Of a DNA stretch of 34,514 bases, positions 18,360 through 19,599 are shown piece by piece. This stretch comes from Escherichia phage Chuche. A program made the translations under genes and the position numbers. The stretch lies in the sequence record PP925824.1; one strand, given 5' to 3'. Each line of letters starts with the position of its first letter. The stretch's first letter is position 1. A model generated the notes under the pieces. That model worked only from the letters and a program-made list of their open reading frames with translations. It did no database searches and was not told the DNA's origin.

Positions 18360-18564
18360 GGCAATACGGTGAAGCATCCCCAGGGGAAGTGAAGCTAAAC
18401 TTAAGAGGGGCGGATATAGACGCCCCGATTCACAGAAAAATTTATTGAATTTAAACGTTTTCAACGTTATGTTTTACGCAGATTTCAAGGTTTTGGGGAT
18501 TTAGAGGCGGCCCCCCAAAAGTTGATACCGCCTAGTTGGTAACTTCGTCGTCAGACTGGGACTC

Positions 18565-18599
18565 CAACCACGCCAGCTGAGAGGTTGGCGCTATTTTTT
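18565..18599 (+). terminator. Candidate terminator for the parMR transcript
   Basis: Stem ccaacc / ggttgg followed by cgctatttttt on the plus strand; overlaps the 3' end of the convergent DUF3800 gene. Confidence 0.4.
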
Positions 18600-19397
18600 A
18601 CGCAAAGGGGGTAATTTATATCGCAAATTAACCTCTTTCGTTTCAATATCTCTTGGCCCCTTCTTTTTATCAAAAAACAACCAGATATTGAATTTTCGCT
18701 CTGTCGGCCAGGTATCGTGCCGTAATGATTCCCACCCAAGATAAGAAGCGATTTTCTCTGCCATAGCCAGTTTCGCTGGAGAAGTGGCTTTCCTTTGATA
18801 TGCACACATTACAGCCCCTAATAAAAAATCGACAAGCTGAATATGTTCCGATGTTTTTGAGTCTTTTGTTTCAACTAGTTTAATTATGTCCTTGCGCCCA
18901 TATTTTCGGGCCAGAGAATGGTTGGCAATTATGTGAAACTCTTCATCGGCTTTTTTGTAACGAGATGGCAGGGGATCAACTTCTATAAGGAACTCACATT
19001 CCGCATGAGGCCACCTTTGGATCACGTTACCTATTTTGGTTTCAATAAGCTTGCAAAAATGCTTACGCATTGCAAGATCATAATCCCCACCATGATATGA
19101 TTTTTCTACTTTAGACTTCTCAACAATAATACAGTGAAAAGCCATCCAGTTGTGCCTAAAAAACACATCAATGACGTCGCTATAAAAAGCTGCATTACGC
19201 TTTGAATGTGCTTTCTGCCATTTGAGCTCATCACTGCATCCATGCTTTTTTCTCAAATCCTGTACCATGCGAGTGAGTTCAGCGCGCCTCTGATAGCTCA
19301 TCCAGAGACTCCCAAATCCGTAGAATGGCTGCCCATCAACGCCAGATTCATCACAGGCAACATGCCATATCATTTTTTTCTGATTGTTATCTTTCAT
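18591..19397 (-). CDS. DUF3800-like protein (function unknown; candidate defence cargo)
   Basis: 268 aa; N-terminal IWHVACDESG and later IQLVDFLLGAV fit the DUF3800 pattern; AT-rich; occupies the slot where P2 carries old. Confidence 0.65.
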   Translation of the reverse strand: MKDNNQKKMIWHVACDESGVDGQPFYGFGSLWMSYQRRAELTRMVQDLRKKHGCSDELKWQKAHSKRNAAFYSDVIDVFFRHNWMAFHCIIVEKSKVEKSYHGGDYDLAMRKHFCKLIETKIGNVIQRWPHAECEFLIEVDPLPSRYKKADEEFHIIANHSLARKYGRKDIIKLVETKDSKTSEHIQLVDFLLGAVMCAYQRKATSPAKLAMAEKIASYLGWESLRHDTWPTERKFNIWLFFDKKKGPRDIETKEVNLRYKLPPLRKK

Positions 19398-19599
19398 TGG
19401 TCTTGGGTTCTGGGGACTAAACGTGCTGCATCTAATTTAATCACACACATAACCTACTGATAAAGATCATTTTTATTCCTGTCTCTCACCAAATGGGTAT
19501 TGAGAATGACCACCTGAACACACTGAAATAAAGGCGAAAATCATGTATCGCTCTACTGCACAATAGTGCACAAATTTGCACAATTTTTTTGAAGGACTT

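Follow-up and report, generated by a model that had tools for sequence, protein, structure and literature searches.

The window analyzed here, the 34,514 nucleotides (nt) of Escherichia phage Chuche (PP925824.1), is an E. coli prophage that belongs to the P2 family and is of the P88/Xuanwuvirus type. Between its gpA/parMR genes and the cos/portal region it contains an insert, which is best explained as a two-gene accessory module of this P88-like prophage. One gene lies on the minus strand and encodes a DUF3800 protein of 268 amino acids (aa) with an RNase H-like fold. The other, situated on the plus strand, specifies a structured small RNA, which to judge from its sequence and its helices belongs to the family of the lambda 6S RNA. 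In one subtype of this family, the RNA gene always stands tail-to-tail with an RNase H-like DUF3800 gene, and two long-standing orphans meet in this module. We tentatively interpret the protein, with slightly less than even confidence, as a moron-encoded nuclease of RNase H fold that works on its own, probably in exclusion or as an anti-phage factor. In Enterobacterales, its gene would be wired to a convergent 6S-type small RNA.

The DUF3800 gene and its RNase H-like product

RefSeq already annotates the product of the minus-strand gene as DUF3800. The original prediction, made from the letters of the window, had called it DUF3800-like and had pointed to the motifs CDESG and IQLVDFLLGAV. Both statements held. 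The Pfam hidden Markov model (HMM) PF12686 matched residues 15-196 (E 3.5e-10; 41.2 bits at a gathering score of 21), and the columns of the two motifs were invariant or nearly so in a family alignment of 47 sequences. The following features were assigned to the gene:

18591..19397, minus strand: gene of the DUF3800 / type-2 RNase H-fold protein, 268 aa, ATG start
19341..19355, minus strand: CDESG, residues 15-19 (C15, D16, E17, S18 and G19 invariant in 47 homologs)
18810..18842, minus strand: IQLVDFLLGAV, residues 186-196, including the QxxD motif (Q187, D190); I186, Q187, D190, L193 and G194 invariant in 47 homologs
19434..19463, minus strand: weak candidate promoter of the DUF3800 gene (TTATCA, 18-nt spacer, TAAATT), found by eye and below the calls of the promoter scan, low confidence
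18407..18426, minus strand: candidate terminator of the DUF3800 mRNA, a GC hairpin GGGGCGTCTATATCCGCCCC plus TCTTAAGTTT, listed as terminator-like site in the scan

The sequence motifs of DUF3800 members, an N-terminal D-E(-S) and a C-terminal QxxD, are both present, with D16, E17, S18 and Q187-x-x-D190 being invariant. E57, D141 and S180 were likewise invariant in the 47 homologs, and D179 was found in at least 90% of them. CDESG resembles the D-E-x-G motif of RNase HII, and its residues D16 and E17 presumably make up the catalytic acidic pair. QxxD has been described as the defining motif of DUF3800 (Mestre 2020). AlphaFold2 yielded a confident model (pLDDT 91.9, pTM 0.91), whose RNase H-like alpha/beta core is closest to RNase HII/H2A. 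PIWI domains of guide-using Argonautes also appeared among its structural neighbours. The same fold assignment has been made in published DUF3800 analyses, in which a rearranged active site was noted. A profile search of the PDB with the protein sequence revealed no related solved structure.

Homologs of approximately 260-270 aa with 44-76% identity occur across Gammaproteobacteria and beyond. A PHROG was matched almost from end to end, which carries no functional assignment, and the PADLOC candidate family PDC-M04A was matched over nearly the full length (E 2.6e-35). Taken alone, the protein is a further member of a known, uncharacterised family. Most RefSeq copies of E. coli have a form of 288 aa, caused by one extra A in the terminal A-run (window 18591-18600), while the 268-aa allele is present in the window and in one identical protein (P0001). 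The additional 20 residues are a translation of the small-RNA gene, into which the 288-aa form runs and which itself has never been annotated, a point of importance for annotation. We also considered the 268-aa form as a truncation; this was rejected since its length and C-terminus fit the family. The 5′ flank of the gene differs between the three unrelated contexts that were compared.

The convergent small RNA and its relatives

The original prediction had assumed a single 268-aa gene in this interval. The reading frame of that length exists, but it is not the sole gene, as an unannotated small-RNA gene resides on the plus strand:

18445..18599, plus strand: small-RNA gene of the lambda 6S RNA family with promoter, structured RNA of ~120 nt and terminator, predicted by covariance model and by similarity to the P2-like prophage L152
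18445..18473, plus strand: promoter-like hexamers TTGAAT (18445-18450) and TATGTT (18468-18473) with a 17-nt spacer, read from the sequence
18491..18532, plus strand: H-type pseudoknot, in which helix P5 (18491-18498 with 18513-18520) is interleaved with the invariant helix P4 GGCGG/CCGCC (18506-18510 with 18528-18532)
18535..18568, plus strand: helix P2 (GUUGG 18535-18539 with CCAAC 18564-18568) around helix P3 (18547-18549 with 18554-18556), from RNAalifold and pair counts
18571..18599, plus strand: hairpin P1, which covaries, and U-tract, intrinsic terminator of the RNA (terminator-like site 18571-18590, tail CTATTTTTTA)

The hexamers match the consensus at 8 of 12 positions, which is weak and under the threshold of the scan; lambdoid copies possess clear promoters at the equivalent position. 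Transcription probably starts near 18480. On the plus strand, P1 (18571-18590) followed by CTATTTTTT was called as a terminator. On the minus strand, P1 is not followed by a U-run, and the terminator scan disclosed no terminator past the stop codon of the DUF3800 gene until 18426-18407. The U-tract (18592-18599) is complementary to the end of the DUF3800 reading frame, namely its two final Lys codons and the stop codon, so that both genes overlap tail-to-tail by about 9 nt; the indel separating the 268-aa and 288-aa forms corresponds to six versus seven U in this tract.

The ~108 nt immediately after the stop codon are conserved by 89% in Salmonella, where the proteins are 76% identical, and by 77% in lambdoid phages with 62% identical proteins. 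Among 12 loci, 66 columns were invariant, and RNAalifold predicted four nested helices, to which a fifth helix adds the H-type pseudoknot. A scan of viral contigs for the invariant core CGAAGTNACCAACTNGGCGGT provided 92 stretches representing 80 unique variants. Pairs of the nested helices were counted on a representative alignment of 33 sequences. Standard pairs occupied 95.2% of the pair cells compared to 85.9% in shuffled alignments (none of 500 reached the observed value) and 20-47% with slid partners, and 61 double-sided changes were observed where 21 were expected. The middle pair of P3, for instance, was seen as AU, UA, GC and CG. P5 was studied alignment-free by comparing own arms with cross arms, because linkers of variable length shift the columns between subtypes. 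Its 15 different arm sequences stay complementary, with a mean of 7.85 bp for own arms, 4.34 bp across subtypes and 4.99 bp after shuffling. Single-sequence folding energies were no better than those of shuffles (z -0.56 and -0.90) and the case for the structure thus rests on covariation. Compensatory changes were also found among copies in non-lambdoid settings (GCCA/UGGC versus GCCG/CGGC), which argues that the RNA is under selection even where no Q antiterminator exists.

Covariation also revealed the coding strand. Read on the strand of the DUF3800 gene, the variable pairs of P1 comprised 33 C·A and one G·U combination, and pair 4 of P3 comprised 51 C·A and no G·U. Since the C·A pairs become G·U on the opposite strand, the RNA is encoded on the plus strand of the window, convergently to the DUF3800 gene. 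A conserved 3′ untranslated region (UTR) on the gene strand was considered as well and rejected by the same counts. Within the insert, the sole similarity to L152, which contains the RNA and no DUF3800 gene, extended from 18445 to 18593, from the -35 hexamer to the terminator, showing that the RNA is a discrete module.

The covariance model gave 106.6 bits for positions 18489-18591 (plus strand) of the window and 92.5 bits for lambda. By blastn, a related copy of the family matched lambda 44613-44713 with 88% identity between Q and S, a region which we take to lie within the classical 194-nt 6S RNA. The lambda sequence fits all five helices including the pseudoknot. On these sequence and structural grounds the RNA of the window is homologous to the lambda 6S RNA, i.e., to the pR′-tR′ late leader. 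At loci that harbor the RNA without a DUF3800 gene, Q antiterminator genes from several families precede it by 60-90 nt, which places it at the position of the pR′-tR′ leader; a good sigma-70 promoter lies before it, and a strong terminator follows, and then tRNAs or lysis genes. The 6S RNA of lambda has been known since 1971, still without an assigned function; it is abundant, bound by Hfq, present in lysogens and occurs in forms of about 194 and 121 nt (2024 preprint). In our lambda segment (L151, lambda 43800-45600) it occupies positions 813-916, is overlapped by the annotated "orf-64" and belongs to no Rfam family. The RNAs linked to DUF3800 form a subtype of their own, in which P5 reads UUUUGGGR/YCCCAAAA and P1 with its U-tract replaces the separate tR′ hairpin as terminator. 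The lambdoid copies without DUF3800 (L059, L063, L081, L103 and others) have in common an additional conserved leader at the 5′ end, GCUCGGACGUCRAAGGCGAAAGAGCGG, and end in a strong terminator hairpin that is separate; in many cases tRNA genes follow, ahead of the lysis cassette. On one viral contig (L137), two identical copies of the RNA were detected 1,571 nt apart (372-475 and 1943-2046).

Searches of Rfam at gathering thresholds (whole window) and with E values up to 10 (positions 18000-20100) disclosed no relevant match, including DUF3800-I and -IX, and the RNA belongs neither to the Rfam DUF3800 motifs (I-XI) nor to drum or skipping-rope. A "gyrA RNA" match at 19942-19995 (22 bits at a gathering score of 45) was discarded as just a GC hairpin with a T-run (GGGGCATAAATTTTTTATGCCCC); situated just beyond the 3′ end of the portal gene, this element resembles an ordinary terminator.

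Genomic setting and linkage of the two genes

The insert and its neighbors are arranged as follows:

14139-16982, plus strand: gpA
17084-18043, plus strand: ParM
ending at 18359, plus strand: ParR
18360..19556: accessory insert of 1,197 bp in the hotspot between gpA/parMR and cos/portal; homology to P88 stops at 18359 and restarts at 19557
20001-21047, minus strand: portal (Q)
21047-22798, minus strand: large terminase (P)

It had been proposed that the gene is AT-rich and occupies the variable anti-phage hotspot that corresponds to old of P2, between A/parMR and cos/Q. Our data agree with this. The GC content is 0.39-0.44 over 18400-19600 and 0.53-0.58 in the flanks, and the junctions with P88 (18359/18360 and 19556/19557) place the insert precisely in the interval between gpA and gpQ, which is a hotspot for anti-phage cargo of P2-like phages with 1,650 arrangements, among them old and tin in P2 (Rousset 2022). 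The complete cargo was present in 38 out of 5,426 complete E. coli genomes, the conserved cos-side flank in 1,150 of them; P88, vB_EcoM-569R5 and L152 hold different cargo at the same slot. The proposed divergent orientation had to be corrected, since the DUF3800 gene and A-parMR are convergent, and Q/P run in the same direction as the former.

In Enterobacterales, the DUF3800 gene is a solo gene oriented opposite to its neighbors. Besides the P2 hotspot (as in the window, L011 and L070, among others), its sites include the interval from the Q antiterminator gene to the lysis cassette in lambdoid prophages (E. coli, Yersinia, Serratia, Sodalis and Erwinia) and an island of Salmonella adjacent to a 186-like prophage. 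The RNA was detected beside every member of this clade that was examined: in the window and in L004 and L007, at all ten species-genome loci searched with the covariance model, at 45 viral-contig loci, where it had a fixed spacing to the gene, and in an independent set comprising four further genera, in which one locus (L154) has another gene parting the RNA from Q. Altogether, the RNA accompanies every one of about 70 Enterobacterales copies, in four kinds of context, and RNA and protein have co-diverged. By contrast, the covariance model did not find the RNA beside about 31 more distant, non-Enterobacterales homologs, nor was it found beside a Serratia paralog with 49% identity, and a sequence-only iteration with nhmmer did not extend the RNA past Enterobacterales. 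Its lack beside the distant homologs is a real absence, not a problem of sensitivity at that level. Conversely, the RNA occurs without DUF3800 in lambda, at 39 lambdoid and at six P2-like loci. In P2-like prophages of the latter type (L152 3503-3607, also L062, L117 and L118) the RNA is located in the same hotspot and is convergent with the Ogr/Delta late-activator gene; small hypothetical open reading frames (ORFs) precede it (95 aa in L152, 188 aa in L117).

In marine Gammaproteobacteria (Vibrio, Ferrimonas, Colwellia, Psychromonas and similar genera), the orthologs have attC-like sites past their stop codon, as in integron cassettes. Such sites (TAACAAAGC...GCGTTAT) were seen in L056, L016, L019, L022, L026, L029 and L033. 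In V. furnissii (L056, 4775-8202), four attC-like repeats lie 0.6-1.6 kb apart, the stop codon of the gene preceding the first of them, and they represent an integron cassette array. The window itself has no attC-like site; these occur only at the distant orthologs.

PADLOC-DB v2 gave no match of the DUF3800 protein to an experimentally validated system, and only two PDC-M04A candidate models were hit. When the neighbors and the alternative cargo of the hotspot were searched with PADLOC, nothing was found apart from one weak PDC-M18B match in Salmonella (E 1.2e-3), which concerns a 197-aa ORF that directly precedes the DUF3800 gene of the Salmonella island (L004, 6009-6602). Two other regions of the window deserve mention. 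An orphan-type N6/N4 DNA methyltransferase (8945-9736, plus strand; Pfam PF01555; PADLOC MTase_II, E 2.5e-63) is encoded between the gpD tail gene and the integrase and constitutes a second accessory gene of the prophage. A 289-aa Macro-domain protein (33036-33905, plus strand; PF01661, E 3.7e-18; no PADLOC match) is encoded directly after a 609-aa tail-fibre ORF and may be ADP-ribose-related cargo or a counter-defence gene.

Possible functions and comparison with known systems

According to our tentative interpretation, the first gene would encode a nuclease of ~265 aa with a type-2 RNase H (RNase HII/H2A-like) core and the acidic residues D16, E17, D179 and D190. The protein would probably be made in the lysogen, most likely act by itself on RNA-containing nucleic acid (an RNA:DNA hybrid, an R-loop or structured RNA) and serve as a prophage-encoded exclusion or anti-phage factor. 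From the second gene, an independently transcribed small RNA of ~120 nt of the lambda 6S (pR′-tR′ late leader) family would be produced on the other strand. This RNA would mark where the nuclease gene ends, as its terminator hairpin and U-tail overlap the last codons. For the nuclease mRNA, no terminator was found within about 165 nt beyond that point, and the message therefore probably has a 3′ UTR antisense to the whole RNA, which could bring about control by antisense action or transcriptional interference. Where the module resides in a lambdoid host, late transcripts antiterminated by Q would cross the nuclease gene in antisense and silence it during the phage's own lytic growth.

For a role in defence we can mainly offer guilt by association: the accessory and defence-type contexts (the P2 hotspot, the moron site between Q and the lysis genes, the Salmonella island and integron cassettes), the PDC-M04A match, and relatives in the wider family that are effectors of type VII retrons or accessories of Cas12a2/a3 and type VI-F systems. 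As promoterless single-ORF integron cassettes carry distant orthologs, these solo cassettes suggest that the protein can work alone, and the lack of a 6S-type RNA beside about 31 non-Enterobacterales homologs supports that it is sufficient by itself. Several points weigh against this interpretation. The PADLOC PDC families are 145 guilt-by-embedding candidates, picked out by their position inside BREX, DISARM and type I restriction-modification (RM) loci; moreover, PDC-M04 is listed as a multi-gene candidate, and the genes flanking ours (ParM, ParR and the flanking ORF) had no PADLOC match that could supply a partner. A literature search for "PDC-M04" gave no match, and no paper was found that links a stand-alone DUF3800 protein to phage protection. 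P2 hotspots hold non-defence cargo too, and the promoter and ribosome-binding site of the DUF3800 gene are weak or unclear. Furthermore, the linkage, perfect on one side, points to more than a terminator in common, and elsewhere DUF3800 genes are repeatedly tied to structured RNAs (Weinberg et al. 2017).

This linkage is at the core of the main rival explanation, which we think possible but on the unlikely side, namely that nuclease and 6S-type RNA constitute a functional RNA-protein pair, with the RNA as an inhibitor (similar to a type III antitoxin), as cofactor or scaffold, or as the substrate or molecular pattern of the protein. The nuclease might, for instance, sense the constitutive late-leader RNA of incoming lambdoid phages, while the resident copy tunes or masks it. 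The abutment of RNA and stop codon throughout the Enterobacterales clade, across P2-like, lambdoid, Salmonella-island and other contexts, fits such a pair, as do the RNA staying with DUF3800 in L154 though parted from Q, the co-divergence of both partners with a DUF-linked RNA subtype, and the persistence of compensatory changes in non-lambdoid contexts. The association of DUF3800 genes with 11 other structured RNA motifs, retron msDNA and CRISPR RNAs, the PIWI domains among the neighbors of the model, and the abundant, Hfq-bound occurrence of the lambda RNA in lysogens point in the same direction. However, each partner is frequent without the other, the RNA in lambdoid and P2-like phages and the protein in integron cassettes. 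In addition, zero spacing and a shared terminator mean that block inheritance alone could account for the linkage, and the RNA neither has a variable guide-like single-stranded segment nor matches an Rfam DUF3800 motif. Tandem RNA repeats upstream on the same strand, as in ToxIN-like type III toxin-antitoxin systems, were not observed; the RNA is a single copy, convergent and downstream of the gene, and it also exists without the protein. A more far-reaching proposal, which we regard as rather doubtful, is that DUF3800 nucleases are RNA-recognising effectors and that the enterobacterial clade adopted a lambda 6S-type late-leader RNA as cognate RNA, so that RNA and protein together serve immunity or exclusion. 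The nuclease would then either be restrained or programmed by the resident RNA or read the 6S RNA of incoming lambdoid phages as a signal of infection.

Slightly more doubtful still is a gene without any role in defence, i.e., a nucleic-acid housekeeping enzyme (for removal of RNA primers or R-loops or for RNA processing on behalf of the prophage) or a neutral passenger moron. The fold is indeed that of housekeeping RNases H, no validated PADLOC defence family was matched, the PHROG is functionally unassigned, the hotspot and integron cassettes also accommodate non-defence genes, and the site between Q and lysis genes hosts many morons of other kinds. On the other hand, the gene is sporadic, horizontally shuffled among unrelated mobile contexts and of foreign GC content, unlike a core replication function; its orientation against the phage operons is that of lysogen-expressed morons, and its relatives are retron and CRISPR effectors or accessories or are embedded in BREX/RM loci. 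Highly improbable in our opinion is a selfish addiction module resembling toxin-antitoxin systems, in which the mRNA of a nuclease toxin would be restrained, as in 3′-overlapping type I systems, by antisense pairing of its 3′ end with the abundant convergent RNA, thereby stabilising the prophage. The convergent geometry with an RNA terminator overlapping the end of the coding sequence fits this reading, the mRNA probably runs antisense through the RNA gene, the RNA promoter is of a constitutive type, and parMR next door suggests a neighborhood of maintenance genes. But the gene does without such an RNA in integron cassettes, the RNA stands alone in many phages, a conserved elaborate pseudoknot is needless for simple antisense pairing, and type I toxins are small membrane peptides rather than nucleases of 30 kDa.

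The pseudoknotted structure and breadth of the lambda 6S family, its existence as an autonomous gene in P2-like phages lacking Q, and its fixed tail-to-tail union with DUF3800 appear to be undescribed. The lambda RNA thus belongs to a widespread, strongly structured family absent from Rfam. Because the 6S-type RNA is kept intact, with promoter-like hexamers and terminator, in Q-less P2-like phages, it must have a role other than that of a Q-loading leader. The compact 1.2-kb module of E. coli makes the two old questions of DUF3800 and lambda 6S RNA experimentally approachable. If the cognate-RNA proposal were true, it would provide a first function for the lambda 6S RNA and for many DUF3800-associated RNAs.

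Compared to other DUF3800 (PF12686) proteins, the product of the window gene shares an HMM score above threshold, the N-terminal D-E and QxxD motifs, the RNase H-like fold, the mobile or defence-related contexts and the frequent proximity of a structured RNA. Its clade differs by its compact size of ~265 aa and a conserved C-terminal extension (residues ~200-265; motifs GW, DT and ERKFNIW). Unlike the proteins of type VII retrons and the TPR-DUF3800 accessories of CRISPR systems, the window gene has no reverse transcriptase, TPR domain or CRISPR locus; its neighbors are ParR and cos/portal, and no ORF of a reverse transcriptase exists in the insert. Moreover, the retron VII proteins lack the Q of QxxD, which is kept in the window clade. 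Type-2 RNases H (RNase HII, H2A and HIII) are related in fold, but sequence identity is about 10% with no PDB match at the sequence level, the fourth acidic residue of the window protein has apparently been relocated to the QxxD helix, the "catalytic rearrangement" noted by others, and the gene is accessory and horizontally mobile instead of housekeeping. To PDC-M04 of PADLOC, the similarity is confined to component A (E 2.6e-35), as no second component recognised by PADLOC is adjacent.

P2 Old is an ATPase-Toprim nuclease of an unrelated family, and the window gene differs from it also by its small-RNA partner gene. Shared with old/tin and other hotspot cargo (Rousset et al. 2022) are the slot, the foreign composition, the predicted expression as accessory gene in the lysogen and, with Old, a nuclease-type protein. 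The window RNA differs from the DUF3800-I to DUF3800-XI motifs (Weinberg et al. 2017) in that it matches no Rfam model and is also an independent late leader of lambdoid phages; like them, it is a structured RNA with conserved unpaired nucleotides that adjoins a DUF3800 gene, which in those motifs may be on either strand, and it ends, as they often do, with a terminator. From the lambda 6S RNA, finally, the window copy is distinguished by its location in a P2-like phage without a Q antiterminator, downstream of parR and convergent with the DUF3800 gene, the position just downstream of Q being found in its lambdoid relatives. It is also shorter (~120 versus 194 nt), lacking the longer lambdoid 5′ leader and the separate tR′ hairpin. 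In common with the lambda RNA, itself a short discrete RNA, it has a homologous sequence, the same five helices, and a putative promoter and a terminator of its own.

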